From: Thermoplasmatota archaeon
GTDB taxonomy: Archaea > Thermoplasmatota > E2 > UBA202 > DSCA01
Length of the DNA: 53,019 bases
Direction: 5' to 3'
NCBI GenBank assembly: GCA_046498345.1
Contig: JAWOAW010000015.1
Coordinates: 1-53,019, forward strand
Made by a program: the position numbers and the translations under genes. The notes beneath the pieces are model-generated. The model did not search any database, was not told the DNA's origin, and was given only the letters and a program-made list of their open reading frames with translations. Within the stretch, counting starts at the first letter, position 1. The number at the start of each line of letters is the position of its first letter. Shown in pieces: positions 1 through 31,377 of this stretch.

Positions 1-1284
1 GACGGCGTGGCTCCAGGCCTGGCCAAGGATGTCGATGTTTTGTTGGCCTATGGCGTCGAAGAACAGGATGTCGAGCCAGTCGCCTGCGCCGCCCTGCTCG
101 GGATGGAACTTGTCTTCTTTGCTGTAGCCGAGGCCGGTGCTTCCCAGAGTGGCGATGGCGCCGCCGCGGGGGAGGCTGGTAAGGCGCCAGCTCCAGCATT
201 CGTAGACGGGGATGCCGAAGGTCCAGGAGGGATTGGTGAGGCTGACGTTGAACAGGCTGTTGTGGCAGCCGGCGACCACGCATATGGGCAGTCGGTCGCC
301 GTTGTTGAGGAGGGGCATCTGGAATGTCTGGAGGCCGTATATCCATGTGTCGGGGTCGTTTGGGGGATGGGTTCCCCAGGTGGTGGGGCTGCCGTGTCCG
401 GCGAAGAAGATGTATCCGCAGCCCTGCTGCAGGGTGGCGGCGACGTCTCGCCATCCCTGGAGTGTGTGGTCGGATGTCCAGAGGTTGATCGGGGTGGTGT
501 GTGGCATGCGGTCGATGGCCTGCTGGGCTGCGATTTCGCCTTCGTTGTAGTCGTTGAAGGTGTAGGTGTCGCCTGCCACGGTGGCGAAGGTGTCGAGCCA
601 TGGCGCGCCGTGGACGGTGGTCTCGTAGGTGATGATTTTGTCGACCATGGTTTGGACCTCCCGGGTGTTTCGGCAGGCGAGTCTGCCCAGGTATACGTCG
701 GGGTGCAGGTCGCGGATGTCTTCCGCCGGCTGGTTTTTTCGCCATTCGCCGTAGATGCCGTCGCGGTCGGTGTCCCATGAGGAAAACGAGCCGTTGGCGG
801 TGTATATGTCCGCGTAGTATAGATCGCTGAGGTATGTGTCTTCTTCGGTGGCGACGTTGTCTTCGATGTGGCTGTAGCGGGCGGGCAGCCACCATGGTTC
901 GCCCCGCAACGCGGGATGGCGGCCGCCGACGAGCATGACGTAGCTGATGTTCCAGTCTTCCAGGGCGTTCTTGATGAAGTATTTGATTTTTTCCTGGTCG
1001 TCCCGTCCTTCCACGCTAAAGTGGTCGCCTCCGTATATCTCGTCCAGGGTGACCAACCGGGTGGCGATGCCGTGGCTGTCTTTGTGCTCTTTCAGCCGCT
1101 GTAGGTGGTCGGTCCATGCGGCGGGGGAGATGATGAGCAGGTCGTAGGTTTCGAGGGTGTTTTCTATGTTGGCTGCAGGATGTATGGTGGTGTCTGCATG
1201 TTGCACGGTGTCGAGGCCGGCCAGCGTCGACGAGCAGACCAGAACTGCCACCAGGCATGCCGCCGGTATCCATGTTCGCGCCAT
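1..1284 (-). CDS. Peptidase C25 (gingipain-like) family cysteine protease, secreted; partial, 3' end runs off the window
   Basis: Absent from the ORF track because no stop lies in the window. The reverse frame from ATG 1284-1282 (GGAGG a few nt upstream) is open to position 1. It reads MARTWIPAACLVAVLVCSSTLAG (signal peptide) ... KIKYFIKNALEDWNISYVMLVGG ... LYYADIY ... VYLGRLACRNTREVQTMVDKIITYE ... GYIFFAGHGSPTTW (His) ... ICVVAGCHNSLFN (Cys) ... CWSWRLTSLPRGGAIATLGSTG. It is collinear with the 22727..25129 product. Confidence 0.8.
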   Translation of the reverse strand, partial: MARTWIPAACLVAVLVCSSTLAGLDTVQHADTTIHPAANIENTLETYDLLIISPAAWTDHLQRLKEHKDSHGIATRLVTLDEIYGGDHFSVEGRDDQEKIKYFIKNALEDWNISYVMLVGGRHPALRGEPWWLPARYSHIEDNVATEEDTYLSDLYYADIYTANGSFSSWDTDRDGIYGEWRKNQPAEDIRDLHPDVYLGRLACRNTREVQTMVDKIITYETTVHGAPWLDTFATVAGDTYTFNDYNEGEIAAQQAIDRMPHTTPINLWTSDHTLQGWRDVAATLQQGCGYIFFAGHGSPTTWGTHPPNDPDTWIYGLQTFQMPLLNNGDRLPICVVAGCHNSLFNVSLTNPSWTFGIPVYECWSWRLTSLPRGGAIATLGSTGLGYSKEDKFHPEQGGAGDWLDILFFDAIGQQNIDILGQAWSHAV

Positions 1285-1401
1285 TATTTTTCCTCCATGT
1301 GTACAATGTATGGCGGCATATAAAGGATGCCGTTTTGCCGGGGTATACTGTGGTATCTGCCAAAAATTACGCCGGGAGATACCGCAACGCTTAAAAACTA
1401 G

Positions 1402-1417
1402 TTTAGGTATGCCTAAA
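1402..1417. promoter_or_regulatory. Candidate DtxR/IdeR-type iron-box operator upstream of feoA
   Basis: Palindrome TTTAGG-TATG-CCTAAA sits 16 nt upstream of the feoA ATG. The core TTAGGTATGCCTAA resembles the DtxR consensus core TTAGGTTAGCCTAA. A DtxR-family repressor is encoded at the end of the same operon. Confidence 0.5.
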
Positions 1418-1432
1418 AATACTGGTGACTGT

Positions 1433-1663
1433 ATGGAGCAGCCGATTGCAGACCTCGAAACCGGAGACACCGCCACCATCGCCCGGCTCGGCGGCGGCCG
1501 TGGATGCCAGCGCAGGCTCCGTACCATGGGCATACGGGAAGGCAAACACGTCCGGGTGGTCACCAAACATCCCTTCGTCGGGCCGCTCGTCGTAGAGATA
1601 GACGGACGCAAAACAACCATCGGCAGAGGCATGGCCCAGCGTATTTTCGTCACCACACCATGA
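1433..1663 (+). CDS. feoA: Ferrous iron transport protein A (FeoA)
   Basis: MEQPIADLETGDTATIARLGGGRGCQRRLRTMGIREGKHVRVV...: typical FeoA SH3-like domain of about 76 aa. Its stop TGA overlaps the feoB ATG (ATGA). The alternative ATG at 1409 lies inside the operator palindrome. Confidence 0.85.
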   Translation: MEQPIADLETGDTATIARLGGGRGCQRRLRTMGIREGKHVRVVTKHPFVGPLVVEIDGRKTTIGRGMAQRIFVTTP

Positions 1664-2631
1664 AAAAAATCGTTTTGATGGGCAACCCCAACGTGGGGAA
1701 AAGCGTCGTCTTCGCCCGGCTCACCGGGGCCCAGGTCATCTCCTCCAACTACCCGGGCACCACCATCGACTACTCAAAAGGACGGCTTCGCATCGAGGGA
1801 GAGCGCGCAGAAATCATCGACGCTCCGGGCACCTACTCGCTCGAGCCGTCCAACAAGGCAGAGGAGGTAGCCGTCGAGCTGCTGCACGACGCCGACATCG
1901 TGGTGAACGTCGTCGACGCCACCAACCTCGAGCGCAACCTCTATCTGACGCTTGAGCTCCTCGAGCAAGATGTGCCCGTGGTCGTGGCGCTCAACATGTG
2001 GGACGAAACAGCCCATGAGGGTATCACCATCGACAGGGAACGGCTGGAGGAGCTGCTCGGCGTTCCAGCAGTGCCCACGGTGGCGCTCACCGGCGAGGGG
2101 TTCCGCGAGCTCGTCGCCGCGCTGCCTGATGCGAGGCAGTGTGATCGGCTGCCGGCCGGCGAGGAGGCGCGATGGGTGGACATCGGCCATATCATCCGGG
2201 CGGTGCAGCACGTCGAGCATCGACATCACACCATCTGGGATCGGCTGGCGGATGCGACCATCATGCCGGCCAGCGGTATCCCTATCGCCATCGTCGTCCT
2301 GCTGGCCTCGTTCTGGCTTATCCAGGTTATCGGCGAGTCGGTCATCACCGTTCTGATGGACCCGCTGTTTGAGGCATATCGCCCGCTTGTCATGGATCTG
2401 AGCGAATGGCTGGGGCCGGGCATGCTGCATGACATTCTGGTCGGCCAGCTCATCGAGGGGGGTATCGACTACGAGCAGTCCATGGGCATGCTGACCACCG
2501 GGCTCTATGTTCCCTTCGGCATTGTGCTCCCCTACATCGCTGCCTTCTATCTGCTGCTGTCGCTGCTGGAGGACTCTGGCTATCTGCCGCGGCTGGCCAC
2601 GCTCACCGACAACGTGTTCCACCGGCTGTGA
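1660..2631 (+). CDS. feoB: Ferrous iron transporter FeoB, N-terminal part (G domain, helical domain, first TM segments); ends at an in-frame TGA
   Basis: MKKIVLMGNPNVGKSVVFARLTG (G1), DAPG (G3), NMWD (G4), then LSLLEDSGYLPRLATLTDNVFHRL followed by TGA at 2629-2631. Confidence 0.85.
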   Translation: MKKIVLMGNPNVGKSVVFARLTGAQVISSNYPGTTIDYSKGRLRIEGERAEIIDAPGTYSLEPSNKAEEVAVELLHDADIVVNVVDATNLERNLYLTLELLEQDVPVVVALNMWDETAHEGITIDRERLEELLGVPAVPTVALTGEGFRELVAALPDARQCDRLPAGEEARWVDIGHIIRAVQHVEHRHHTIWDRLADATIMPASGIPIAIVVLLASFWLIQVIGESVITVLMDPLFEAYRPLVMDLSEWLGPGMLHDILVGQLIEGGIDYEQSMGMLTTGLYVPFGIVLPYIAAFYLLLSLLEDSGYLPRLATLTDNVFHRL

Positions 2632-3372
2632 ATGCACGGCTACGGCATCGTCCCCGTTTTCATGGGGCTCGGCTGCAACGTCCCCGGCATGCTGGCCACC
2701 CGGAATCTGGAAACCCGGAAGCAGCGATTCATCGCCGCGACGCTGCTCGCCATCGCGGTGCCCTGCATGGCGCAGACCGCCATGATATTCGGCATCCTGG
2801 GGCCGCATGGATTGCGCTACATCCTCCTGGTCGTCGGGGTGCTCGTCGCGACCTACGTCACCGCGGGGCTGCTGCTCACCCGCGTGGTGGCAGGCGAGAG
2901 CCCCGAGATATTCATGGAGATACCGCCCTATCGCCGTCCTTCTCTGGCGGCCATCGGCAAAAAAACCTGGATGCGCGTCCGGGGGTTCCTGGGCGAGGCC
3001 ATTCCCTTTCTTTTCCTGGGGGTGCTGCTCGTCAACATGCTCTATTCGGCGGGCGTCCTGCAGTGGCTGGGCGACGTCTTTGCACCGTTCACCCATGGCT
3101 GGCTGGGATTGCCCAGCCAGGCGACCACGGCGCTGCTCGTCGGCTTCCTCCGCAAGGACCTGGCCATCGGGATGCTGCTCTCGCTTGACATGGGCGCCAT
3201 GCAGCTGGTCATCGCCGCCGTGGTGCTCACCGTCTATTTTCCCTGCGTGGCCACCTTCGCGGTCATGCTCCGGGAGCTCGGCCTGAAGGACATGCTCAAG
3301 GCGACCGCCGTCATGCTCGTCACGGCGACGCTCGTCGGCGGGCTGCTGCACCTCGTACTGCCCGGTGTATAG
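2632..3372 (+). CDS. feoB: FeoB, C-terminal membrane part, same frame as 1660..2631
   Basis: Starts with ATG immediately after the TGA. MHGYGIVPVFMGLGCNVPGMLATR continues the conserved FeoB gate motif (G-L-H-G-K-x-F-I-P-x-x-x-G-F-G-C-N-V-P). Several further TM helices follow. Confidence 0.85.
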   Translation: MHGYGIVPVFMGLGCNVPGMLATRNLETRKQRFIAATLLAIAVPCMAQTAMIFGILGPHGLRYILLVVGVLVATYVTAGLLLTRVVAGESPEIFMEIPPYRRPSLAAIGKKTWMRVRGFLGEAIPFLFLGVLLVNMLYSAGVLQWLGDVFAPFTHGWLGLPSQATTALLVGFLRKDLAIGMLLSLDMGAMQLVIAAVVLTVYFPCVATFAVMLRELGLKDMLKATAVMLVTATLVGGLLHLVLPGV

Positions 3373-3380
3373 GAGAAACC

Positions 3381-3839
3381 ATGAGACGAAAAACCATAGA
3401 GGAATACATCGAAACCATCTACGTCCTGCAGCAGCGGGAGGGTTCCGCGCATACCAGTGCCATCGCCGCCGAGATGGGGGTGCAGGCGCCCTCGGTGACA
3501 GAGATGCTCCAGAAGCTGCAGGAGGACGGCTACGTCGAGTACACCCCATACCGGGGGGCCATGCTCACCGATACCGGCCGTGCATTGGCCGAGGATCTCA
3601 TGGACAAGCACCGGGTCATCGCCGACTTCCTGGACATCATCGGCGTCGAACGAAGCCGGGCGGAAATCGACGCCTGCCAGATAGAGCACCATGTCAGCCC
3701 CCGGAGCATAGAACAGCTCGAAAAATTCGTGCATTTTGTCACCGATGCACCCGACATGCCCCGCTGGATCCGGCATTTCAGGCAGTACTGCAGGACGGGG
3801 GAACGGGTGTCATGCGAGCTATACGACAGGGAGGAATAG
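3381..3839 (+). CDS. DtxR/MntR/IdeR-family metal-dependent transcriptional repressor
   Basis: MRRKTIEEYIETIYVLQQREGSAHTSAIAAEMGVQAPSVTEMLQKLQEDGYV...DKHRVIADFL...ACQIEHHVS: wHTH plus metal-binding/dimerisation helices. AGGAG RBS. Starts 8 nt after feoB. Confidence 0.85.
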   Translation: MRRKTIEEYIETIYVLQQREGSAHTSAIAAEMGVQAPSVTEMLQKLQEDGYVEYTPYRGAMLTDTGRALAEDLMDKHRVIADFLDIIGVERSRAEIDACQIEHHVSPRSIEQLEKFVHFVTDAPDMPRWIRHFRQYCRTGERVSCELYDREE

Positions 3840-3918
3840 CCGGGCAGCCCGAGGCCCCGCAGCGAAAACCAGTAGCATTATATAGCCATGAGGGATATAA
3901 TGGGCGGAGGCTAACACC

Positions 3919-5565
3919 ATGAAACGAGGTACACAACCAGCAGTATTGGGAATAGCAATAGCGGCACTGCTCGTGATGACGGTGGCCCCTGCGGCAATCG
4001 TCGCCACCGAGCCCGCCGAAGAAAACGAGTTTGAGGGAGCCGAGCTCCGCCCCTTCCAGCTGGAGCGACTGAGCCACGACGGACCCGTCGCCACGACGGC
4101 CGGCGGCGCCCTGGTCACCCCGGACAGCCCGGAAGAGGACATGGAGCCCTGCATCACCGACGACCGAAACGGCCACACCGTGGTCACCTGGACGCATCGA
4201 GCGGGAACCTTCGACGCCGACATCGGCATGGCCTACTCATCCGACGGCACCGCATGGGAGTCAACGCTTATCACAATGGACGGTATGGAGCTCCACTCCG
4301 ACGTCGCCTACGTCCACGGGAGCGACTTCGAGGGTGGCGGCGACTTCACCGGCCTCTGGGGCTGCTTCGGCGACATCGTCAACAACAACCCCGGATTCTT
4401 CCGCATCGCCGACATCACCGACAGCGGCACCTACGAGTTCTACACCTGGAGCAGCGAATACGAGGACACCAGATACACATGCATCTCCGACCATACATGG
4501 TACAACGAGTTCAACTACGACGTCACCGGGCCCACCAACATGTACATCTACCACGTCGTCTACGACGTCTACGACATACCGGCATGCCCGAGCCACTGGT
4601 ACGTGGGCGGAGCGCTCGAGGGAGGCGGCATCGGATACTTCGACGCGCAGTCCAAGGTGGTGACCGCACCCGCAGCCGACCCAGACATGGCCTGCTTCCA
4701 CGACAATGACCCGGCGCAGACCGAGGACGACTACATCATACTCACCTGGCAGTACGACAACCAGACCACCGGGGGCAGCGAAGTCGTCGTCAAAAAAATC
4801 GTGCCAAACGAGGAGCCCGACATCGAGTACACGCCATACCAGTACTACCTCGACCAGGACCCCACCTATGACAACGCGCATCCCAACATCGGCAGCTCGG
4901 GAGACAACGCCGTCATCGTCTACATGACCACCGACAACGTGTTCGGCGACTGGGACATCAAATGCGCCTACACCAGCGACGGCGGCGAAAACTGGGGCTT
5001 CAGCACCGTCGCCAGCGAAGGCCAGACCGACGAGCTGTACCCGGCCGTGTTCATGAGCGGCAGCACCGCGTTCTGCGCATATATCATGGACGGCAACCTG
5101 TACGTCACCAAGTCAGAGGACGGCGGCGCAACATGGAACGAGGCAGAGCAGATAAACGAGGAAGACGGCACCGTCGTCGAAGAAGAAAACGCCGTCGACA
5201 TCCACCAGAGCGGCATCGTCTGGGTGGACAACCGGGACGGCAACAAGGACATCTACTACGCACCCGTACCCAGCGCCATTCTCGAGATCACCGGCCTTTC
5301 AGGCGGGTTCGGCGTCAGCGCCACCATCACCAACAGCGGCACCGTCGCAGCCGAAAACGTCGAATGGGCCGTCGAGCTCTCAGGACCAGTGTTCGTCGGC
5401 GCGAGCACATCAGGCACCATCGACCAGCTCGGGCCCGGCGAATCAGCCACCGTAGGGCCCGGCCTCGTGCTCGGCGTCGGACCGACCACGATAACCGTCA
5501 CGGCGGGCGGCTCCAGCACATCGGCCAGCGGCTTCGTCCTCGGACCGTTCGTGCTGGGACTATAG
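3919..5565 (+). CDS. Secreted BNR/Asp-box repeat (sialidase-like beta-propeller) protein
   Basis: N-terminal signal/anchor MKRGTQPAVLGIAIAALLVMTVAPAAIVA. Asp-box motifs are SSDGTAW, TSDGGENW and SEDGGATW. The C-terminal Ig-like tail is GFGVSATITNSGTVAAENVEWAVELSG. Confidence 0.7.
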   Translation: MKRGTQPAVLGIAIAALLVMTVAPAAIVATEPAEENEFEGAELRPFQLERLSHDGPVATTAGGALVTPDSPEEDMEPCITDDRNGHTVVTWTHRAGTFDADIGMAYSSDGTAWESTLITMDGMELHSDVAYVHGSDFEGGGDFTGLWGCFGDIVNNNPGFFRIADITDSGTYEFYTWSSEYEDTRYTCISDHTWYNEFNYDVTGPTNMYIYHVVYDVYDIPACPSHWYVGGALEGGGIGYFDAQSKVVTAPAADPDMACFHDNDPAQTEDDYIILTWQYDNQTTGGSEVVVKKIVPNEEPDIEYTPYQYYLDQDPTYDNAHPNIGSSGDNAVIVYMTTDNVFGDWDIKCAYTSDGGENWGFSTVASEGQTDELYPAVFMSGSTAFCAYIMDGNLYVTKSEDGGATWNEAEQINEEDGTVVEEENAVDIHQSGIVWVDNRDGNKDIYYAPVPSAILEITGLSGGFGVSATITNSGTVAAENVEWAVELSGPVFVGASTSGTIDQLGPGESATVGPGLVLGVGPTTITVTAGGSSTSASGFVLGPFVLGL

Positions 5566-5569
5566 CGAA

Positions 5570-5593
5570 CGCCACCTCTCCCCCTCTTTTTTT
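5570..5593 (+). terminator. C-rich box plus T8 run, candidate archaeal terminator
   Basis: CGCCACCTCTCCCCCTC followed by TTTTTTTT, 5 nt after the stop of 3919..5565. The same 15-mer CGCCACCTCTCCCCC followed by a T-run recurs at 43221-43246. Confidence 0.35.
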
Positions 5594-5630
5594 TCACATT
5601 TTTTGGTGTCCAGCCATGCAAAAAGATAGG

Positions 5631-5876
5631 TCACATCATCCGGCGGATGCAGACCTTCAGCACAAAGGCAGCGCCACCGATGACCACCACCATGGCAACG
5701 ATGAAGGCCACAAACGCCAGGCTCACGCTTCCCAGCACCCAGACGGCATACAATCCGCCGGCCAAGACAGCGAGAAGGACAAGCGCCAGGGACGACCAGT
5801 CCACGACCCGGCAGTACCTGCGTGCCCTGCGCCGTCCTGTATCATCCCGCCCGTTTTCGGTGCCATCTGCTGACAT
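5631..5876 (-). CDS. Small membrane protein (two predicted TM helices), unknown function
   Basis: Charged N-terminus (MSADGTENGRDDTGRRRARR), then LALVLLAVLAGGLYAVWVLG and VSLAFVAFIVAMVVVIGGAAFVL. The overlapping + strand ORF (5647..5910) is low-complexity. Confidence 0.5.
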   Translation of the reverse strand: MSADGTENGRDDTGRRRARRYCRVVDWSSLALVLLAVLAGGLYAVWVLGSVSLAFVAFIVAMVVVIGGAAFVLKVCIRRMM

Positions 5877-5956
5877 GGATGTCAGGCATACAACCCGAGA
5901 CGGCTTTTAAGCATTCGCCCCACCGGTACGAATGTGTACGAGGGGCGTCAAAATGT

Positions 5957-5982
5957 AATGTCGGGGGCGGGAAACGAACCCG
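5957..5982. repeat. Distal direct repeat: partial copy of the tRNA-Met 3' end (acceptor 3' strand plus T-arm)
   Basis: aatgtcgggggcgggaaacgaacccg versus 9136-9161 aatgtcgggggcgggatctgaacccg. The three mismatches are consecutive and fall in the T-loop. Confidence 0.8.
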
Positions 5983-5984
5983 TA

Positions 5985-5996
5985 TTTACCGGTAAA
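5985..5996. repeat. Perfect palindrome TTTACCGGTAAA just inside the left islet boundary
   Basis: Arms TTTAC/GTAAA are shared with the palindrome at 9087-9102. Confidence 0.6.
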
Positions 5997-6147
5997 ATTT
6001 TGAAACGACAGAGAATGCTCTTGGAATATTATTTGGGTGCAAATCACGGCAATTAGGAGGGTAAAGTGTGCCAAGGAAACCTATAACCTTGTGACTAATT
6101 AGCAAATTTTATAAACAAATTGTTGTTAAGAATATGAGGTGGGAGAG

Positions 6148-7083
6148 ATGAAGGAAAAATCCTTGTCTGTAAGCGGGTTGGTTATTGGCATACTATTTTT
6201 GTTTATCGGAACAAATGTTATTTCAGAAACCGAAAATGTAGTAATTGAAAGATGTACTACCTCAGGTAACAATCTTGTTGGAAATACTTTATATGTTGGA
6301 GGCACGGGACCAAATAATTATACGAAAATTCAGGAGGCGATAAATGATGCAAGCGATGATGATGCTGTTTTTGTGTATAGTGGCACATATTATGAGCAGT
6401 TAGTAGTAGACAAAACAGTAAATCTCATAGGCGAGAATAAGTACACCACAATTGTTGACGGTGGCGGCGAGAATGACACTGTGCGTATTGGTACTTCTGC
6501 CCATGGCGTAACAATATCAGGGTTCACAATACAAAACAGCGGAGATGTGGGGTATGGCGGACATATTGATGCTGGTATCGACATACTATCAAACAATAAT
6601 GTAATTTTTAATAATATCCTTATAAACCATCCACAAACAGGCATATATCTGTATGTTTCAAACGGAAATAATATTACAAATAATATAATCCAATACACTC
6701 GTTCTGGGATAGATTTCAACTCTGCTAGTGAAAATATCATTTCACATAATAATTTCTCTTACAATAGCGAGTGGGGTGTAGTGGTTCATGTTGATGGTAA
6801 AAGCGCCAACAACATCATTGCATATAACACATTCTTTGGAAACACGATGGGGTTGGCTCTGTATCATTCCAGCAACAGAATTTATCGGAATAACTTTATT
6901 AAAAATAGTAATTTTAATGCAGCTTCACATTTTAATCCATTTCGGATGACTCCCTCACGGAATAGTTGGGATGAAAATTTCTGGGATGATTGGAGGGGTT
7001 TCGGGCCAAAACATATCCCAGGATTCTTCGGATTTAATTTCGATCTCCATCCAGCGGAGGAGCCATATACGTTTGAGGTTTGA
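6148..7083 (+). CDS. Secreted/anchored right-handed parallel beta-helix repeat protein (PbH1/NosD-like)
   Basis: ATG at 6148 is preceded by GGTGGGAG, whereas the track starts at GTG 6139. The N-terminal anchor is LSVSGLVIGILFLFIGTNVI. Then comes LYVGGTGPNNYTKIQEAINDASDDDAVFVYSGTYYEQLVVDKTVNLIGE, followed by repeated NNxIxxN units. It is a paralogue of the N-terminal half of 27433..29088. The gene is AT-rich. Confidence 0.8.
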   Translation: MKEKSLSVSGLVIGILFLFIGTNVISETENVVIERCTTSGNNLVGNTLYVGGTGPNNYTKIQEAINDASDDDAVFVYSGTYYEQLVVDKTVNLIGENKYTTIVDGGGENDTVRIGTSAHGVTISGFTIQNSGDVGYGGHIDAGIDILSNNNVIFNNILINHPQTGIYLYVSNGNNITNNIIQYTRSGIDFNSASENIISHNNFSYNSEWGVVVHVDGKSANNIIAYNTFFGNTMGLALYHSSNRIYRNNFIKNSNFNAASHFNPFRMTPSRNSWDENFWDDWRGFGPKHIPGFFGFNFDLHPAEEPYTFEV

Positions 7084-7087
7084 TTGT

Positions 7088-8062
7088 ATGAAAAATAGTT
7101 TATTTAGAAAAACTCTCGTTATTGTTTTACTAGCTCTATTAACCGTAACCGGCTTATCAACTTTCATATCCTCAAACTATAAAATGGAGGCAGTAAATGT
7201 AACAATCGATACTGTTGAACAACCAAGAAATTCTACGATTGACGTAGCTTATCCGGATGATGGTATCTCACTCAAAACTGTTGGCGGTGACGGGAACACC
7301 AAATATTGGGCTGTGATTGCAACAGCAGGAGCTAACGCACACCAAGTAATATTAAGCACCAGAGATGCTGAACAGCTGTACGATATACTTGTTGCTCATA
7401 ATTGGGAAGAAAATAATATAAAATTATTAATTGAAGAAGAAGCTACAAGAGGAGCAGTAATGAATACGTTCCAGTGGCTGAATGAAAGTGGCGAAGATGC
7501 AGATGATGTCATTTTTTTCTTTTTTAGTTTTCATGGATTCCATATGGAAGATAAGCCACCCTTTGACGAGCCTGATGGCCAAGATGGTTTTCTAGCACCG
7601 TTTGGTTTCGATTTTGAAACCTGGGAAAATGCTATATTAGATGATGAGCTGGCAGCAGAATTTAATAAACTGAAATCAAAAAATATTTTTGCCATCATCC
7701 ATTCTTGTCATAGTGGCGAGTTTATTGATGGCACGAGCGACCTTTGTAACTCTGGTCGTGTTGTTTTAACTTCATGTGCCGCAGATGAAACATCCTGCCC
7801 CATCTATGCTAAAATGCAATGGCTTTATGCATATTATATAATAAAAGGTTTCAAAGGAAGTGCAGATAATAATAAAGACAACTGGGTATCGGCAGAAGAA
7901 GCGTTTAGCTATGCGAAATTACCAACTCAAATCCGATCCACAATATTCACCTTAATTAGTCCCCAAGTTCCCTTTACAACACAGCATCCCCAAATATATG
8001 ACGGATGGCCTACTGAGGAAAATCATGAGGATGACTTAAATATAATAGATATGACAAAGTAA
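7088..8062 (+). CDS. Membrane-anchored caspase-family (clan CD, C14 orthocaspase/metacaspase-like) cysteine peptidase
   Basis: ATG lies 4 nt after the previous stop. The anchor is MKNSLFRKTLVIVLLALLTVTGLSTFI. The His-Gly motif is VIFFFFSFHGFH and the Cys motif is IFAIIHSCHSGEF (compare D-x-C-H-S-G of metacaspases). The order and spacing of the dyad are canonical. Confidence 0.7.
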   Translation: MKNSLFRKTLVIVLLALLTVTGLSTFISSNYKMEAVNVTIDTVEQPRNSTIDVAYPDDGISLKTVGGDGNTKYWAVIATAGANAHQVILSTRDAEQLYDILVAHNWEENNIKLLIEEEATRGAVMNTFQWLNESGEDADDVIFFFFSFHGFHMEDKPPFDEPDGQDGFLAPFGFDFETWENAILDDELAAEFNKLKSKNIFAIIHSCHSGEFIDGTSDLCNSGRVVLTSCAADETSCPIYAKMQWLYAYYIIKGFKGSADNNKDNWVSAEEAFSYAKLPTQIRSTIFTLISPQVPFTTQHPQIYDGWPTEENHEDDLNIIDMTK

Positions 8063-8155
8063 GAATTAAATTTTTTCATTTAGGGGATACTTCTGTTGCG
8101 TTAGGTTGGCGTGAATTGAAAGGGGGTGATGCTTGCGGGTCGTGAATGAATATAC

Positions 8156-8872
8156 CTAGTACTGTATCACGTAGTTGTCGCCATAACCAGCCCAATCCTT
8201 AGCTATCTCACCGCCGAGGAAAAAGTTCAGCGGGTCGAACCGGAATCGCAGGGCCGTCCAAGCATCCGTCTCGGACAAGACATCGCCAGGCTGCGGATTA
8301 CCAATTACCTGTTTATCGATTTTGAAGGTTACGATATTGTTTTCCAGGTCAAATGATCCTTCCACTTCCTCTCTAGGGCTTGGAGATTCCCCAGCACTGA
8401 AAGCTATATGCTCTCCGTTGGTATTCACATGGACACCGACACTCCACGCGGTATCGTGATATGTCCAGTGCATGGCGTAAATACATTTCTCCTTGATAAA
8501 TATCAAATCGCTGACCTCAACTGCAGTAAACAGGTAGCCAGGTTCAGATTCATCTTCATAAAACCATGCCGATACCACATCAATAGCATCCAGTGACTCT
8601 TTTCCAAATATCCCATAGACCACAAGGAAATTCAACGGTTTAGGCCTCGAAATCCAGACGTCCCCAGCATCATCCACTATCTCAGGGTCATCACCATCTA
8701 TTGGTACAGAGACATCTGTTTCCCCAGGTATATCCGCCTCTTGGATTGTATTATCTGCTTCGTCAGAGAGCAACCCCTGCATCAAAGGCCCAGCACCCAA
8801 AGAGGGAATCGTTGCAACGAGCAGGAACACAATTCCAAGTACAAACACGTTGTGCCTCACCCCTTTTTTCAT
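8156..8872 (-). CDS. Secreted protein of unknown function (islet cargo)
   Basis: Signal peptide MKKGVRHNVFVLGIVFLLVATIPSLGAG, then an acidic linker and a beta-rich body. I recognise no motif. Confidence 0.6.
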   Translation of the reverse strand: MKKGVRHNVFVLGIVFLLVATIPSLGAGPLMQGLLSDEADNTIQEADIPGETDVSVPIDGDDPEIVDDAGDVWISRPKPLNFLVVYGIFGKESLDAIDVVSAWFYEDESEPGYLFTAVEVSDLIFIKEKCIYAMHWTYHDTAWSVGVHVNTNGEHIAFSAGESPSPREEVEGSFDLENNIVTFKIDKQVIGNPQPGDVLSETDAWTALRFRFDPLNFFLGGEIAKDWAGYGDNYVIQY

Positions 8873-9086
8873 ATTAATTTACCTCCACATTTAAAACAAA
8901 AGCACATATATAAATCTTGCTAATATAACACACGGTATTAGTTTTATCACAATCATCCCACCTGATATATCCATGTGTTACGGTGCTACTTTATCGAGAT
9001 TCAAACTATTTAACGCAAAAAGTAAGCGGGATAATACCACTAACTTCCACATTCAGGCACATAGGACTCAGACTGCGTTTACTCTC

Positions 9087-9102
9087 TTTTTACTAGTAAA
9101 AA
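9087..9102. repeat. Perfect 16-nt palindrome TTTTTACTAGTAAAAA inside the right islet boundary
   Basis: Same TTTAC-NN-GTAAA arms as 5985-5996. It lies 35 nt from the tRNA 3' end. Confidence 0.6.
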
Positions 9103-9137
9103 TCTATCTGGCCTTGCTCGTTCTCTCGAAGGAAAAA

Positions 9138-9238
9138 TGTCGGGGGCGGGATCTGAACCCGCGACCTCCTGATGTCCCAGCGAACCCTTGAGCTGTGCTT
9201 ATGAGTCAGGCGCTCTAACCAGGCTGAGCCACCCCGAC
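9138..9238 (-). tRNA. tRNA-Met (or Ile2) anticodon CAU with a 26-nt canonical (37/38) intron
   Basis: Reverse strand: GUCGGGG-UG-GCUC-AGCCUGGUUA-GAGC-G-CCUGA-CUCAUA[AGCACAGCUCAAGGGUUCGCUGGGAC]A-UCAGG-AGGUC-GCGGG-UUCAGAU-CCCGC-CCCCGAC-A. All stems pair. Total length 101 nt, 75 nt after splicing. Confidence 0.9.
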
Positions 9239-9268: not shown

Positions 9269-9394
9269 TCAGCGTTTTTCGACGGTGTAGCCGCAGTGGG
9301 TGCACTTCCACTTTTCGTAGACATCGTGCTCGAAGGAGAACGGCACCAGTGAGCCATCCTCGCATTCTGGGCACGGCGGAAAGATGTTTGCTAT
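9269..9394 (-). CDS. Possible 41-aa zinc-ribbon mini-protein lacking a canonical start codon
   Basis: The frame reads (I)ANIFPPCPECEDGSLVPFSFEHDVYEKWKCTHCGYTVEKR*. CPxC...CxxC is a textbook zinc ribbon. No ATG/GTG/TTG precedes the first Cys pair after the upstream in-frame TGA (9404-9406). GGTGAT (9403-9398) precedes an ATA codon at 9394. Confidence 0.3.
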   Translation of the reverse strand: MANIFPPCPECEDGSLVPFSFEHDVYEKWKCTHCGYTVEKR

Positions 9395-20547: not shown

Positions 20548-22025
20548 CATGCGCTGAAGTCCATCAGGCTGGCCCGCCCGCTCCCCAGGGACACGACGGG
20601 CACCTTGGCCGGGTCGGGCATGAAGTTCATCATCCGCTGGTAGTCCGTCTGCGACTGCCAGGTTGAGGCGTTGATGAGCTGCACGCCCCGGTAGGAGTCA
20701 ATCGCCGTCGTATGCACGTGCCCGGTGACGAAGACATCCGGGATGCGGTCGATGACCATGTAGTCATGCTGCTCCGGGGCCAGCGGGGTTATCTCCCCGT
20801 AGATGGGGGCCAGATGTCGCCGCATCAGCATGTGTTTCATGATTTCGGTGGGCTGGTTCTGGTTGATGCCGATGCGCGTGGAAAAATCAAACAGCGACTG
20901 CCCGTGATAGAGCAGCACGTCAAGCCCGTCCAGCCGGGTGTAGGCCGGGTTTCCCACGAACACCACGTTGAGATCGGAAAAAATCCGCCGGATCTCGCCC
21001 TCGAGGGCAGGCTGAGGAAGCGCCTGCCGTACCGCGTCATGGTTTCCCGGCTGCAGCACGATGGTCACGTCGCGGGGCACCGCCGACAGTTCCTCGGCGA
21101 GCGCCCGGTACTGCTCGTAGATGTCCTCGATGTACAGGTCCTGCTCCTGGGTGGGGTAGATGCCGATGCCCTCGACGGCGTCCCCGGGGATAACGAGATA
21201 TTTTATGTGCCGGGCGACCTCCTGCTGGCGGGTGGTGCCGACCTCGCCGTTCATCCATCGCATAAACTTTTTCCATTCTTTTTCCAGGAACGTCTTGCTG
21301 CCGATGTGGATGTCGGAGGCGAAGGCCACGTATCCCTCGCCGTTGCACTGCTGCCTGGTCTGATGTACCGGTATGTCTGGGCGGAGCAGCTGCTGGGCGA
21401 TGAGAAGCCCGTTTCGCCCGCCGCTGCCGATGACACCGACGACCTCGTCCTCCACCAGCGTGTCGGCCATGCCGGCGTCCTCCTCCGGGATGTAGACGGT
21501 GGCGCCGCCGCTTTCGTCTTCGATGTCCATCAGGACGTGTCCCTTCGAGCTCCTGGTGATGCTGTCCACGATGCCAATGACCGCTATGCTGCCATCCCTG
21601 TCCCGTGCTTTTTTGACCGGGATGACATGTTTCATCTCCTGGCGCTTCCGGAGCAGCCGGTGGAGCTGGGCGTAGCGGTCGCAGAACAGCTTGGTGAAAT
21701 CGGCGAGGGTTCCCTCGCAGCAGCTGTTCCCGGTGACATCCTTGAGGACCTCCAGCTGCCCGGGCTCCTCCCGGGGCGATATCGGTGGCGTGTCTGCGGA
21801 CGGGGTCCGCTCATCCTGCTCGTGTCGCCCGGTCTGGAAGACGTGTTTGACGTCGTCCAGCACGATGTTGAGCGGTTTTCCGTCCACGCAGTCGAGCACC
21901 CGCCGGGCGTTGCTCATGCAGTCTCCCTGCCGCACGAGATAGTCAACTGCCTCGGACTGGATGAAGACCTGCTGTTTCTGAAAGTATTCGATTACTTTCC
22001 GTCGATCGTCCATTTTAGCCGGCAT
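20547..22025 (-). CDS. polB: DNA polymerase II (PolD) small subunit DP1
   Basis: OB-fold region plus calcineurin-like phosphodiesterase motifs: ASDIHIGS, VIPGDAVEG, LQPGNHD, VTGHVH. The start may be 22013 (MDDRRKV). Confidence 0.9.
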   Translation of the reverse strand: MPAKMDDRRKVIEYFQKQQVFIQSEAVDYLVRQGDCMSNARRVLDCVDGKPLNIVLDDVKHVFQTGRHEQDERTPSADTPPISPREEPGQLEVLKDVTGNSCCEGTLADFTKLFCDRYAQLHRLLRKRQEMKHVIPVKKARDRDGSIAVIGIVDSITRSSKGHVLMDIEDESGGATVYIPEEDAGMADTLVEDEVVGVIGSGGRNGLLIAQQLLRPDIPVHQTRQQCNGEGYVAFASDIHIGSKTFLEKEWKKFMRWMNGEVGTTRQQEVARHIKYLVIPGDAVEGIGIYPTQEQDLYIEDIYEQYRALAEELSAVPRDVTIVLQPGNHDAVRQALPQPALEGEIRRIFSDLNVVFVGNPAYTRLDGLDVLLYHGQSLFDFSTRIGINQNQPTEIMKHMLMRRHLAPIYGEITPLAPEQHDYMVIDRIPDVFVTGHVHTTAIDSYRGVQLINASTWQSQTDYQRMMNFMPDPAKVPVVSLGSGRASLMDFSA

Positions 22026-22336
22026 GGACGCGTCCGCGGTGGGCGTGAAGCACCGGGCAGCGACGGCCCAGCATTTTTCTCAATCCCGCGATCCCCTGAG
22101 CACCATTAGTCTTCGGCCGGGCTGCTCCCTTCCGGGCCTGACCCTCTATCCGAAACCAAGATGGACAGCCGACCCTCCGGCCGGCTGCGGCCATCACCTC
22201 TGGTCCCAGGGGACGGGATTTCATCGTCCAACGCTGGATCGCTGCCTGGGCTCCACGCCGCCGTTGGACTTCGACCCCGACTGAAGGCGATTTCCGGTGA
22301 CAGGAGACGCCTAACTTCCCGGTCTAGTCCATACCT
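22020..22336 (-). ncRNA. Archaeal signal recognition particle RNA (7S RNA), about 317 nt; ends approximate
   Basis: The reverse strand contains the helix-8 hallmark GAGGGUCAGGCCCGGAAGGGAGCAGCCCGGCC. The 5' GUAUGGAC (22334-22327) pairs with the 3' GUCCAUGC (22029-22022), closing helix 1. CCAGGCAGCGA/UCGCUGCCCGG form part of helix 5. The ORFs called here are spurious. Confidence 0.85.
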
Positions 22337-22626: not shown

Positions 22627-22726
22627 AGTCGTCCCTCCCGTAGATATTGGCAATCGATATAAAAGGTTGGTGTTTTTTGAGCAAACAGTTATATCTCGCC
22701 CCCATATTTCTTTACAGAGGCACAGC

Positions 22727-25129
22727 ATGAACACAAAAATCATCGTCGGAGCGGTCTGCGCGCTGCTCCTCACCGGCATGGCCCCCGTCCTTGAAACATC
22801 GCACGAACAGCTTTCAAACACCGTTTCAGTTGCCCCCTCGACGACGGACGCCCGCTCCGATTTCTCGTATACGCTGGAGGAGGCGACGCGCGGCCACGTC
22901 AGCGTCACGCTGGACGACACGTCTACCTGGCTGCGGCAGCCGGGCGCCCCCATGCTGCCGCGGATGGTACGCCACCTGGAGCTTCCCTTCGGAGCCACCA
23001 ACGTCCGGGTCGACGTCGCCGTCCCCGGGTACGACGAGCGCATCCTGGATGCGGACGTGGTTCCCGCGCAGCCAGCTGTGCCATACACGGGCACGCCGGG
23101 GCCCCGCGTGCAGGGCTGGCAGAAAAACAGGCAGCTCTATGCGAGCAGCCAGCCGTATCCATCCGGATGGTACAGCGTCCGTGTCGGCTGCGGGCTCAAC
23201 GGCACGCTGCACCGGGTCACCCATGTCACCGTGGATCTGTACCCCGTGCGCTACCGTCCTGCGGACGACACGCTGCTGGTGGCCCGGTCGATGAACCTCG
23301 ACGTTTCCTACGATGCACCCCGGTCTTCCATTGTAGTGGCTGGCGACGGCTACGACCTCGTCGTTGTGGCGCCGCCGGGTTTTTCGGATGAGCTGGCGCC
23401 GCTGGTGGAGCATAAGAACAGCCATGGCGTCATCACGCTGCTCAAGACCACGGAGGACATCTATGCCTCCTATGACGGCGTGGACCGGCCTGAGCAGATC
23501 AAATATTTCATCAAGGACGCCGTCGAGAGCTACGGCATCAGCTACGTTCTGCTGGTCGGCGGTCTTCGCTCCCCTGTCTATGGCTCGGCGCGGGACACCC
23601 TGAACTACGGGGTGGAGGACTGGCATGTCCCCGTCCGGTATTCGAATCTCTATGACGAGTACGGCGACCCGGGCTTCCTCTGCGATCTCTACTATGCAGA
23701 CGTTTACGGGGCCGGCGACGTGTTCGACGACTGGGACAGCAACGACGACGGCGTCATCGGCGCCCGCGGCAGGCCGGGCGTCCAGGATGACGACATCGAC
23801 CTCTACCCGGACGTGGCGGTCGGGCGCCTCCCCTGCCGGAACAGCCGGGAGGTGCAGGCCTGCGTGGAAAAAATCATCACCTACGAAACGAGCGCTGCGG
23901 GCTCCGACTGGTTTAACCGCATCGTGGCCGTGGCCGGCGACGGATTGCAGGACCAGGAGGACCTGGACATCCAGTGGGACGTCTCCGGGCTTCCGCCCGG
24001 AGAGTATACCATCCACGCCCGGAGCCGGAGCGCCATCACCGGGGAATGGGGGCCGGTTGACACGGTATCGGTCACCGTTGACCCGGGGCGGGAGTCCTCT
24101 CTCAGCTTTTCCGAGGACGACCATCTCCGCATCGACAGCTACCCGGGTCCGGCCATGGCGGAGATAACGTCTCCCTCCGACGGGGACGTGCTGGGCTCCA
24201 CCGACGTGGACTTCACGCCGCAGGAGGCGTACATGGGCTACCTGTGGGCCAACGTCACCTATATCGACGGGGTCATGCACATCCGCGGTAAGTCCTACGA
24301 CCCGCGGCCCTACGGCTACCACACGGACATCACGGCCTGGGTGGAAAACGGGGACGGCGAGACGGTGTTCAGCCAGCAGAAAAACATGATACGGAGCTAC
24401 TGTGACTGCGAATGGACGACGGGAAACAGAGAGGTGGGCGGCGACCGGGCCGGCGCCTTCCATTACATGCCCGAGTCATTTGAAAAAATCTTTCTCTGGG
24501 CGTCAAATGGCAACTTTACCTCGCAGCGGGACGTGCTCGACACCCTCGGACGGGGCTGCGGCTTCGCTTTCTTTTTCGGCCATGCCAGCCCCAGCACGAT
24601 GATCGTGAACATGCCCGGGATGCCCGGCGGCTTCAGCAACTCTGCAGAGATCGGGCTGCAGCCCATCAACATCGGCATGCCAGTGTTCCCCATGGACAAC
24701 ATCGACAACACGGACAAGCTGCCCATCGTCGCGGTCATGGGATGCCACAACAGCCAGTTCAACGTCACCCTGCTGAACTCCGTGCTGGGCTGGAACCGGG
24801 TGTGGACGGGCTTCTATCCCACGCCGGAATGCTGGAGCTGGTGGCTCACCAGGATGCCCCGCAGCGGCGCCATCGCCACCATCGGCTGCACGGCCCTGGG
24901 CCCCGGCATGTACGACCAGGCGTTCGTCCCCGACACCGGCTGCTGGATTTTCCCCGAGTTCTTCCGGCAGTACGGCGAGGAACGCCATCACGTCCTCGGC
25001 GACGCCTTCACGCAGACCCTCACCAGCTACACCTCGACCTTCGGGCAGGCCAATGCCATAGACGTCCAGATGGTGCAGGAGCTGGCGCTCTTCGGCGACC
25101 CCTCCCTCCGGATCGGCGGGTATCCGTAG
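22727..25129 (+). CDS. Peptidase C25 (gingipain-like) family cysteine protease with propeptide and a roughly 200-aa internal insertion
   Basis: Signal peptide MNTKIIVGAVCALLLTGMAPV, then a propeptide-like N-domain. Further motifs are QIKYFIKDAVESYGISYVLLVGG, LYYADVYG and VAVGRLPCRNSREVQACVEKIITYE. The catalytic motifs are FAFFFGHASPS (His) and IVAVMGCHNSQFN (Cys), followed by CWSWWLTRMPRSGAIATIGCT. Confidence 0.85.
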   Translation: MNTKIIVGAVCALLLTGMAPVLETSHEQLSNTVSVAPSTTDARSDFSYTLEEATRGHVSVTLDDTSTWLRQPGAPMLPRMVRHLELPFGATNVRVDVAVPGYDERILDADVVPAQPAVPYTGTPGPRVQGWQKNRQLYASSQPYPSGWYSVRVGCGLNGTLHRVTHVTVDLYPVRYRPADDTLLVARSMNLDVSYDAPRSSIVVAGDGYDLVVVAPPGFSDELAPLVEHKNSHGVITLLKTTEDIYASYDGVDRPEQIKYFIKDAVESYGISYVLLVGGLRSPVYGSARDTLNYGVEDWHVPVRYSNLYDEYGDPGFLCDLYYADVYGAGDVFDDWDSNDDGVIGARGRPGVQDDDIDLYPDVAVGRLPCRNSREVQACVEKIITYETSAAGSDWFNRIVAVAGDGLQDQEDLDIQWDVSGLPPGEYTIHARSRSAITGEWGPVDTVSVTVDPGRESSLSFSEDDHLRIDSYPGPAMAEITSPSDGDVLGSTDVDFTPQEAYMGYLWANVTYIDGVMHIRGKSYDPRPYGYHTDITAWVENGDGETVFSQQKNMIRSYCDCEWTTGNREVGGDRAGAFHYMPESFEKIFLWASNGNFTSQRDVLDTLGRGCGFAFFFGHASPSTMIVNMPGMPGGFSNSAEIGLQPINIGMPVFPMDNIDNTDKLPIVAVMGCHNSQFNVTLLNSVLGWNRVWTGFYPTPECWSWWLTRMPRSGAIATIGCTALGPGMYDQAFVPDTGCWIFPEFFRQYGEERHHVLGDAFTQTLTSYTSTFGQANAIDVQMVQELALFGDPSLRIGGYP

Positions 25130-27432: not shown

Positions 27433-29088
27433 TCACTCCAGAATCCGGACGCTCCGGATGACCACCTCTTCGACGGGCCAGTCCTGCATGCCGTGCTTCA
27501 TGGTGGTGTCCACGGAGGCGATGGAGCGCAATGTGGCCATGCTGCCAACGACCCGTCCGAAGGCGGCGTAGCTGCCGTCCAGGTGGGGCTGGGCGCCGTC
27601 GCAGATGAAAAACTGGCTGGTGGCGCTGTCCGGGTCGCTGGTCCGGGCCATCGATATGGCGCCGTCGACATGCAGGACCTCGGGATGGGTTTCCAGCTCG
27701 ATGGGCCCGTAGGGGCTCTCCCGGCGGGTGCCGTCGGCTGTGTAGCCGCCGCCCTGGATGACGAAGTCGTCGATGACCCGGTGGAACACCAGCCCGTCGA
27801 AAAAATCATCGGCGGCGAGCCGGACGAAGTTTTCCGTCGTTATGGGCATTTTTTCGTGTTCCAGCGCCAGCACCATGGCGCCGTGCGAGGTGTCCATCAC
27901 CGCCAGGGTGACCTCGTCGAGGTCGTACTCCGTTGCTGCCGGCTGCCAGTCGGCGGCGTACAGCCAGGGCACCCGGATGTCGGGGTTCCAGGGCCAGTAC
28001 AGGCTGCCCTGGAGGACCTTGACGCCGCCGGAATGGTTCGCCCAGTGGTTGCCCCGCCAGCCGTTGAAGAGAGAGTTTTCCAGCCATACGTCGTGGTTGT
28101 TGTCCGCCAGGTTGTTGTACCGGATGGTGTTCAAAAACGCGGTGTCGGCGACGATGCCGGCGCCGTCGTACCAGTCCGCCGGGCCGCCCGTCGCGCCCCG
28201 GATGTCATTGTACTCTACGACGTTTCGCATCGTCGGCCCCGGCCCGAGCATGACGCCCCATTCCAGGTTGTCTTCGAGCCTGTTGTAGCGGACGATGTTG
28301 CCGTCGGAGTATGCCTTGAATGCTATTCCGCAGCCCGGGTGGCTGTAGACGTGGTTGCCCACGATGGTGTTGCCCGCCGAGTACGGCCAGAAGGTCATGC
28401 CGCAGTAGTTGTCATGCATGCTGTTTCCGGCGATGGTGTTGTCCGAGGAGGCGTTGAACACGAAGGCGATGAAGCCGTTGTCGTGGATGTGGTTGCCCGT
28501 GAAGACGTTGTTGCTGCTGTGGTGCAGGTAGACGCCGGTTTCCCGGTTGCCGTAGAGCTCGTTGTCAATGATGCGGTTGCCAGTGCTCTCGTCGAGATAC
28601 AGGCCGCCCTGCTCGTAGCAGTAGCGCTCCCGGCCGTTGTCCCTGACAATGCAGCCGTGGATGGTGTTGCCGTGGGAGGATATCCTGAGGCCCGAACGGT
28701 GGGCGTCGCTGCCGCCGCCGGTGACTGTGAAGCCCGAGATGGACACGTTGTCCGCCTGCACGGTGACCACGTCGCCGTTTCCAGAGCCGTTTATGACCGT
28801 CGTGTTTTTGTCTTCGCCGACCAGGGACACGGTGGTCTCGATGGCTATGGTTTCCCGGTACTCGCCCGGGTAGACGTAGATGGTGTCTCCGCTGCCAGCA
28901 GCGTCGACCGCCGCCTGTATCGTGGTATAGTTGCCCGGGCCGTCGCCGCCCACGTACAGCGTGCCGCTGCTTGGGGCTTCCCGTGCAGGGTCTGCCCGCC
29001 CGTGATATGCCTGCTGCACGCCGGCCTGGACCGGTATGAGCAGCGCGGCGAGCAGGATAACACAGGTCAGTTTCGCTGCCAGTGACAT
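27433..29088 (-). CDS. Secreted fusion protein: NosD-like parallel beta-helix domain plus C-terminal cyclophilin-type peptidyl-prolyl isomerase
   Basis: Signal peptide MSLAAKLTCVILLAALLIPVQAG. The beta-helix begins LYVGGDGPGNYTTIQAAVDAAGSGDTIYVYPGEYRE and continues as repeats. The C-terminal cyclophilin is MPITTENFVRLAADDFFDGLVFHRVIDDFVIQGGG...ISMARTSDPDSATSQFFI...LDGSYAAFGRVV. Confidence 0.85.
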   Translation of the reverse strand: MSLAAKLTCVILLAALLIPVQAGVQQAYHGRADPAREAPSSGTLYVGGDGPGNYTTIQAAVDAAGSGDTIYVYPGEYRETIAIETTVSLVGEDKNTTVINGSGNGDVVTVQADNVSISGFTVTGGGSDAHRSGLRISSHGNTIHGCIVRDNGRERYCYEQGGLYLDESTGNRIIDNELYGNRETGVYLHHSSNNVFTGNHIHDNGFIAFVFNASSDNTIAGNSMHDNYCGMTFWPYSAGNTIVGNHVYSHPGCGIAFKAYSDGNIVRYNRLEDNLEWGVMLGPGPTMRNVVEYNDIRGATGGPADWYDGAGIVADTAFLNTIRYNNLADNNHDVWLENSLFNGWRGNHWANHSGGVKVLQGSLYWPWNPDIRVPWLYAADWQPAATEYDLDEVTLAVMDTSHGAMVLALEHEKMPITTENFVRLAADDFFDGLVFHRVIDDFVIQGGGYTADGTRRESPYGPIELETHPEVLHVDGAISMARTSDPDSATSQFFICDGAQPHLDGSYAAFGRVVGSMATLRSIASVDTTMKHGMQDWPVEEVVIRSVRILE

Positions 29089-30921: not shown

Positions 30922-31377
30922 TTATCGCTGTCCGTAGATGATGACGGTGACGCGTCCGAAGCCTTCCAGGTCCAGCTTGAGGGTTTGACGGCCGGGGGTA
31001 AAATCCTCCTCATATATCCATGAATCCCATGGCAAAATTATGATGCCGAACAAGTATGTGCATGTATCCGCGCCGCCATAAAGGACAGGTTCCTCTTCAT
31101 CATATAGCAACATATGTCCCTGACCAGTAAAATATCTTCCAGCCTTAAGAAATCCAAAGCCAATGACTATGGTGCCGTTTTCCATGTAGAAGGTTTCCTC
31201 AATCGAGCGTTTCCCGAACACAAAGTAGGTCTCGTTGAACGCCTCGAACCGCTCGCCCTGCCCGTATGCCTCCGGAGAGGAATGAGCATGTGTCTCCTGT
31301 CCGCCGGCGACGGAAAGCCAGCCGGTGCAGGCGAGCAAAGCGACCGCCAGCGCGGCCATGAGCTGTCTTCCTTCCAT
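30922..31377 (-). CDS. Putative lipoprotein/secreted protein, unknown function
   Basis: MEGRQLMAALAVALLACTGW (lipobox-like LLAC). The central part is noticeably AT-richer than its surroundings. Confidence 0.45.
   Translation of the reverse strand: MEGRQLMAALAVALLACTGWLSVAGGQETHAHSSPEAYGQGERFEAFNETYFVFGKRSIEETFYMENGTIVIGFGFLKAGRYFTGQGHMLLYDEEEPVLYGGADTCTYLFGIIILPWDSWIYEEDFTPGRQTLKLDLEGFGRVTVIIYGQR

Follow-up and report, generated by a model that had tools for sequence, protein, structure and literature searches.

A 3.2-kb AT-rich islet (positions 5957-9161) abuts the 3' end of an intron-containing tRNA-Met(CAU) gene in contig JAWOAW010000015.1 of an uncultured Thermoplasmatota archaeon, the window analyzed being the whole stretch of 53,019 nt. 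The evidence supports the islet as foreign DNA integrated at the tRNA-Met 3' end and lacking an integrase of its own, as had been proposed in a first-pass annotation made from the sequence. The same annotation took the islet for a single integrated element or its remnant; integration stands, the single element does not. The islet is a composite of cassette A (5957-8090), which hosts the open reading frames (ORFs) ORF1 and ORF2, and cassette B (8091-9135), which hosts ORF3. Site-specific insertion of recombinase-less cassettes at the tRNA-Met(CAU) 3' end, served in trans, is in our judgment the probable origin of this arrangement.

The direct repeat bordering the islet, noticed at first pass, is real. 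The copies at 5957-5982 (AATGTCGGGGGCGGGAAACGAACCCG) and 9136-9161 (AATGTCGGGGGCGGGATCTGAACCCG) are identical at 23 out of 26 positions, the three mismatches being consecutive and located in the T-loop. When up to 3 mismatches are allowed, the 26-mer finds only these two matches in the 53-kb window, and none in 100 shuffles. Nor is the repeat one of many dispersed tRNA-like fragments: a k-mer scan with the whole tRNA 3' half detected no others in the window. The right copy, an attR-type core, is the functional tRNA 3' end plus 2 trailer nt. The left copy (DR-L, an attL-type core) reproduces the terminal 24 nt of tRNA-Met together with 2 nt of trailer, and has an element-type T-loop, AAC replacing TCT; the AAACG variant of DR-L travels with the cassette in another contig, L021. 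The intact integration target is the tRNA(CAU) gene at 9138-9238 on the minus strand (Rfam RF00005, 57.3 bits; anticodon CAU). The Rfam alignment places a 28-nt insertion at the anticodon loop, in line with the intron read at first pass; ARAGORN made no call for this intron-containing tRNA. A second tRNA(CAU), intron-less, is found at window 47520-47593 (minus strand).

The GC content is 0.58-0.67 up to about 5980, drops to 0.33-0.42 over ORF1 and ORF2, is 0.45-0.50 over ORF3, and exceeds 0.56 again past 9136. The shifts coincide exactly with the repeat boundaries, and the islet is the sole AT-rich patch within 53 kb, bearing out the abrupt change in composition reported earlier, which amounts to a drop from about 0.62 to about 0.37-0.45. 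Minor GC dips are seen at 35500-37500 (0.51-0.53), inside the gene of a 1249-aa surface protein with LTD and CarboxypepD_reg domains, and at 31000-31500 (0.51), near a 168-aa ORF with no family.

The triosephosphate isomerase gene neighboring the tRNA assigns the host to the uncultured Thermoplasmatota, with L001 (88% amino acid identity), L002 and L003 as relatives. The tRNA gene, intron included, is nearly invariant across four relatives (L001-L004), and sequences diverge directly past its 3' end. All four carry the same tRNA, and both the islet and its three genes are missing at the locus. The compositional break, the uniqueness of the repeat and the absence of the genes from L001-L004 all speak in favor of the integration first proposed. 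A tRNA-end repeat next to an intact tRNA and absence in relatives, two marks of tRNA-targeting integrative elements, are found here; an own integrase, a third, is not. L001, L002 and L004 are homologous to the window from exactly 9136 onward, and the left flanks of these contigs resemble neither the window nor one another. In L003, window 1-3820 (FeoB, DtxR-like) aligns to within 121 nt of the tRNA, so that 3821-9137 is extra relative to this relative. The portion of it outside the islet (3821-5956, from the conserved FeoB/DtxR flank to the islet) is a GC-rich, lineage-variable segment of the hot spot, absent in L003, in which a BNR/sialidase-like gene (3919-5565, plus strand; Pfam) and a small membrane-protein gene (5631-5876, minus strand) reside. 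A further contig, L162, matches window 1-5838 at 88.6% identity and ends 119 nt short of the repeat; the GC-rich genes of the 3821-5956 segment are native to the clade. The tRNA 3' flank is both a synteny break and a hot spot, the AT-rich islet being its newest layer. The islet is 94% identical to L021, as against the 88.6% identity of the backbone to L162, L021 and L162 deriving from one sample. A search for the exact empty site through homologues of the 548-aa BNR protein found none, hits at 60% identity being paralogues in other contexts, and the hit at 90% identity being L162. Older att scars at about 3821 or about 8091 were not detected in the window by the nhmmer profile.

Two relatives carry AT-rich or cassette-like DNA of their own. 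A decayed, inverted unit resembling cassette A is found at L002 1-1022, 1.2 kb from the tRNA-Met of L002, with an ORF1 homologue on the minus strand and, at 982-993, the sequence TTTACCAGTAAA, which is adjoined by a degenerate core-like stretch; the history of the hot spot therefore extends to the L002 lineage. L003 has a 3.3-kb AT-rich island (300-3600; GC 0.29-0.46) about 6 kb from the tRNA, with a thymidylate-kinase-like ORF and two unknown ORFs.

That the islet is made up by two units follows from a breakpoint shared with other contigs and from an ORF3 module flanked by cores elsewhere. The cassette A/B junction (about 8091; 8088-8094) is a breakpoint that L046 and L163/L164 have in common with the window, and the left neighbor is a different one in each of the three cases. 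L046, L163 and L164 match the window from 8091 to about 9157 at 96-98% identity. In both L163 and L164, window 8091-9157 (98% identical) is bordered by a tRNA-end core at either end. On the left side ...gtgtcgggggcgggatctg (longer reading, ...aaaagtgtcgggggcgggatctg) is joined to ggttctgttgcg; on the right side ...gtgtcgggggcgggatctgaa (longer reading, ...gaaggaaaagtgtcgggggcgggatctgaa) is joined to tggcttcaacgc, followed by other AT-rich DNA, not by a tRNA. The left neighbor of the ORF3 module in these two contigs encodes an AT-rich Peptidase_C25. The alternative neighbors found in L046, L163 and L164 are the only signs, and indirect ones, that cassettes may be excised or transferred. Cassette A is met in L021, a contig with a GC content of 37% throughout, whose identity to window 5957-7889 is 94%. 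This stretch is immediately preceded by a match to window 9089-9161 (89%), and the two matches share a single core of the AAACG type. The resulting junction, right arm - core - left arm, has the order expected of a circle or of a tandem array; a joined-ends (attP-type) form would have this junction, and a tandem array yields the same one. The junctions lie within the T-loop or next to it (after ATCTG, after ATCTGAA, after GAACCCG), and all of them share the block (A/G)TGTCGGGGGCGGGA.

The same comparisons bear on an assembly or binning artefact, in which AT-rich DNA of another organism would have been joined in silico to a GC-rich contig at a short repeat. The source is a metagenome-assembled genome (MAG), and related contigs do break at or near the repeat (L046 inside it, L162 119 nt before). 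Yet two independent misjoins would be needed at 16-nt identities, below usual assembly k-mers, independent assemblies tie the cassettes to exactly the same tRNA-Met core, and the islet is embedded in its contig, with both flanks syntenic to relatives. We hold this explanation to be very improbable.

The palindrome TTTACNNGTAAA occurs in the window at 5985-5996 and 9089-9100 only. The copies expected from the base composition of the islet amount to 0.0085, and two or more copies were obtained in none of 20,000 Markov simulations. The first reading had matching palindromes just inside both repeats; neither is due to chance, but only the left one adjoins its repeat closely, at 2 nt, about 35 nt separating the right one from its own. 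Each is part of a different cassette. In cassette A, the left arm (5983-6023) consists of TA, the palindrome TTTACCGGTAAA (5985-5996) and a conserved arm (ATTTTGAAACGACAGAG...); it is conserved at related sites on other contigs, and a unit profile built for nhmmer matches 5954-6023 with E=4e-16. The palindrome of cassette B, in the right arm, is TTTTTACTAGTAAAAA (9087-9102, with the 12-mer at 9089-9100), and is conserved in L021, L046, L163 and L164. The spacer from palindrome to core (ATCTATCTGGCCTTGCTCGTTCTCTCGAAGGAAA; 9103-9135) is 89-98% conserved in L021, L046 and L163, and absent from the relatives that lack the islet. A degenerate tRNA-like core precedes the right-arm palindrome in L021 (169-210), L039 (32-64) and L040 (minus strand, 37-68); it could have been left behind by a deletion from one palindrome to another, or could serve as an additional binding unit. 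Searching the literature for the palindrome strings led to unrelated papers only.

Sites of the same build were sought in metagenomes with the pattern GAACCCGTATTTACNNGTAAA, which forces 7 nt, GAACCCG, upstream of the palindrome. Of the 12 loci retrieved, one is a bacterial chance hit, and 11 are AT-rich (27-43% GC). Beyond the forced 7 nt, these 11 contigs show T-arm and acceptor sequence of at least four tRNA-like kinds, and share one unit layout, in which core, TA, a palindrome with a center always YR, and a partly conserved arm (AATTnGGTTnAACAGAG) follow one another. Seven palindromes in addition to those imposed by the pattern are found in these contigs, compared with 0.2 expected (P=2e-9). 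Doublets of the form palindrome - spacer - core - TA - palindrome are present in L021, L037 and L039, and gene sets of 2-4 kb are bounded by sites in L036, L038 and L040. The unit profile also retrieved a one-mismatch copy in a Thermoplasmatota MAG originally fetched by protein homology. The palindrome is a family-wide feature adjoining tRNA-like cores. Cargo in the family is mostly made up by secreted proteins (PKD, FG-GAP, Metallophos+Big, C25, M23, DUF4382), in addition to a methylase/ATPase pair.

The palindromes may be recombinase-binding sites. They might alternatively have nothing to do with recombination, and travel with secreted-protein genes as operators of a dimeric transcription factor, or as bidirectional T-run terminators. 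A perfect 12-bp palindrome with a YR center suits a dimeric DNA-binding protein, T/A runs are found on its flanks, and the palindrome is missing from some cassette arms. Against this, the nearest start codon is 150-350 nt from the palindrome, the palindrome lies at a fixed distance of 2 nt from tRNA-like cores of four kinds, and in AT-rich Thermoplasmatota loci most homologues of the beta-helix and ORF3 genes lack it, 1 copy in 90 kb being background level. Such a role we find unlikely. A general promoter feature of the beta-helix and ORF3 families was discarded, the palindrome being absent at the homologue loci L022-L026, L041, L043-L045 and L047-L050, the exceptions being L024, with one site, and L049, where a site has one mismatch.

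In the reading that we favor, insertion of cassettes served in trans, each circular cassette would carry an attP made up by a tRNA-end-like core and flanking arms, one of which would hold the TTTACYRGTAAA palindrome. The common core would span trailer, discriminator, acceptor 3' strand and T-stem 3' strand. Crossover within the 16-nt identical block, predicted to fall within AATGTCGGGGGCGGGA, would restore a working tRNA, and leave DR-L, with the T-loop of the element, at the far end; this block is the simplest position for the crossover because DR-L has the T-loop of the element, and the tRNA that of the host. Cassettes A and B would now be arranged head to tail. The recombinase would come in trans, from either a helper element or the host chromosome, and the cassettes may be mobile at present. 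The cargo would supply secreted and surface proteins of the extracellular-proteolysis kind. Crossover at the center of the palindrome, in the style of serine recombinases, is disfavored in the window, since both palindromes are intact, and their centers are CG and TA.

Two of the four kinds of element-borne cores feature a non-canonical T-loop (TTCGTTT, TTCCCTT, both without A58), while the host tRNA keeps TTCAGAT. The departures are at window 5973-5975 and, in core type b, in L029, L033, L035 and L036. Within the site, differences may be tolerated in the T-loop, or may even be needed there.

The first-pass annotation had reported no integrase or transposase in the islet, and this is confirmed. 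Pfam or NCBIfam searches covered about 47 ORFs of the window, the three of the cargo and about 44 more, and none of these matched an integrase, recombinase or transposase. In 22 ORFs of related contigs one IS5-type transposase is the only hit of this kind. The search for homologues and termini in viruses and plasmids suggested at that stage found nothing related in phage, plasmid or IMG/VR collections. A viral or plasmid origin was discarded, islet DNA having no match in phage and plasmid collections, and ORF2 none in IMG/VR. What four motif scans of IMG/VR returned was limited to unrelated tRNAs and to hits that were due to chance or lay in coding sequence. No autonomous relative with the same att specificity was found among the 22 related-contig ORFs, phages, plasmids or IMG/VR, a search that did not take in the full host genome. 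A split integrase of the SSV type was likewise rejected, the non-coding borders (about 165 and 260 nt) being too short, and the ORFs crossing the repeats having no family. Insertion sequence, transposon and miniature inverted-repeat element do not fit: the repeat on the flanks consists of 26 nt from the tRNA and is no target duplication, the palindromes are each self-complementary, and there is no transposase. An integron cassette was also rejected, the borders being a tRNA-end core and a 12-bp palindrome, with no integrase in the window and ORF3 in opposite orientation.

The main rival is a fixed, decayed remnant, according to which a larger virus or plasmid with its own integrase inserted at tRNA-Met and was reduced to three cargo genes and att sites. 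Elements integrated at tRNA genes commonly decay, the A/B junction has no core, neither helper nor recombinase was found, and the different GC content of ORF3 fits a mosaic history. On the other side, modules of 1.06 kb and roughly 2 kb are met again, at 94-98% identity, in four or more other settings, with the same core at their borders and other neighbors, and this makes independent decay hard to credit; the supposed parent element is on none of the related contigs, and there is no match in the phage, plasmid or IMG/VR collections. Such a dead remnant we judge unlikely.

Several observations weigh against trans-served cassette insertion. No recombinase was found in any searched set, which leaves mobility in trans a proposal. 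The exact empty site, with the 5631-5876 gene abutting the tRNA, was not found, L162 ending 119 nt before the junction. No core copy is recognizable at the A/B junction, where nhmmer finds no unit; a deletion may have fused A and B, or the two may by now be mobile only as one piece. L021 could represent a tandem junction instead of a circle. The palindrome is not on every arm, being missing from the left arm of cassette B and from the arms of its two neighbors in L163. All of the evidence is drawn from short metagenome contigs of unverified linkage, the family contigs were picked by a pattern already containing GAACCCG, and no intact tRNA is found on these short contigs.

The cargo had been described as three signal-peptide proteins, and a basic-then-hydrophobic N-terminus, signal-like, can be read in the translations of ORF1, ORF2 and ORF3 alike. 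ORF1 (6148-7083, plus strand; 311 aa) encodes a secreted or anchored right-handed beta-helix, NosD-like (Pfam PF13229, PF05048), and its homologue P0001 in L021 is 92% identical. ORF2 (7088-8062, plus strand) encodes a caspase-like Peptidase_C14 (Pfam PF00656; NCBIfam caspase), with an N-terminal hydrophobic segment and both catalytic motifs, His (FSFHG) and Cys (HSCHSG), in its translation. The NosD and C14 genes form a conserved two-gene module, which recurs in L022-L026, and is tandemly repeated with Peptidase_C25 and C1 genes on contigs of 33-37% GC. ORF3 (8156-8872, minus strand; GC about 47%) encodes a secreted protein with an N-terminal helix, an acidic disordered linker and a C-terminal beta-sandwich. 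It has no Pfam or NCBIfam family, and belongs to a set of hypothetical proteins found across Thermoplasmatota (e.g. Thermoplasmatales SG8-52-3). As a lead to function, the AlphaFold2 model (pLDDT 72.6) gave matches to generic Ig-like beta-sandwiches only. No further real-looking ORFs of 60 aa or more are present in the islet. The host has GC-rich genes of cargo-like kinds of its own, a Peptidase_C25 (window 22667-25126, plus strand) and a beta-helix fused to a cyclophilin domain (27436-29088, minus strand).

Two more features of the window are recorded here. A 41-codon zinc-ribbon-like ORF (CPEC...CTHC; 9269-9394, minus strand) occupies part of the interval from the tRNA to the triosephosphate isomerase gene; a canonical in-frame start codon is missing, and its DNA is conserved in L001-L003. 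The archaeal signal recognition particle RNA is encoded at 22022-22334 (minus strand).

Archaeal viruses and plasmids integrating at tRNA genes by tyrosine integrases of the SSV and pNOB8 types share with the islet 3' tRNA integration, the direct repeat, the regenerated tRNA and the atypical composition. These elements encode an integrase, which in the SSV type is split into two fragments at the borders; in contrast, the islet has no integrase domain, and its borders are too short for such fragments. Integron cassettes carry one or few genes and no recombinase, are arrayed and exchanged between strains, and depend on a recombinase encoded outside. The islet differs from them because there is no imperfect hairpin of the attC type and no adjacent intI/attI/Pc platform in the window, its genes are in both orientations and have their own upstream regions, and the site is a tRNA end.

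Cis-mobilizable elements (CIMEs) are defined by the retention of att sites in the absence of integration genes (PMC5704250), and the islet, with its direct repeat and no integration genes, falls within this definition. As in the CIMEs of the integrative and conjugative (ICE) and integrative and mobilizable (IME) element systems of Firmicutes, attL and attR derive from the 3' end of the target gene, integrase and transfer genes are missing, tandem accretion takes place at the same site, and mobilization is by an outside recombinase only (PMC5704250). The islet differs in being archaeal, in its far smaller units (1-2 kb, one or two genes), in the conserved 12-bp palindrome by the core, and in that no autonomous relative sharing its att specificity was found.

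The closest described system is the array of ssrA genomic islands of Dehalococcoides. Its islands are low in GC and stand in tandem downstream of a tRNA-like gene, with direct repeats of roughly 20 bp from the 3' end of this gene, a conserved motif by the repeat, a junction in the T-loop, and one position that consistently differs between gene and repeats; about half have no integration module, and have been proposed to be CIMEs, while many carry a serine-recombinase (DsiB) module (PMC3146451). The islet differs because no recombinase was found, the target is tRNA-Met and not tmRNA, the host is archaeal, and the cassettes are far smaller. Since the Dehalococcoides system uses a serine recombinase, a recombinase acting here could be of the serine type too, which a direct repeat does not exclude, as the Dehalococcoides case shows.

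The cassettes might also belong to a Thermoplasmatota cassette-exchange system, integron-like in working and different in build, in which recombinase-less cassettes would be shuffled in tRNA-3'-end arrays, at sites formed by a tRNA-end mimic and a TTTACYRGTAAA arm, read by a recombinase of the chromosome or of a helper; this extension is speculative, and we give it a low probability. Were it true, AT-rich and GC-rich lineages would trade secreted-protein and defense genes. Contigs end at or near the repeat (L046, L162), and cassettes are on this account expected to be under-represented in MAGs, arrays being likely fragmented or lost in such genomes.

Uncultured Thermoplasmatota are abundant protein degraders in sediments and digesters. 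If cassette insertion of the kind favored here holds true, their secreted peptidases and surface proteins would be renewed via tiny cassettes of one or two genes piling up at tRNA genes, and cassettes would cross a 25-point GC gap between lineages without any mobility gene. The islet would be an archaeal counterpart to both CIME accretion and the Dehalococcoides ssrA islands. The signature tRNA-end core, TA, TTTACYRGTAAA and arm could be used for mining archaeal metagenomes, and would provide a defined DNA site for finding the recombinase.

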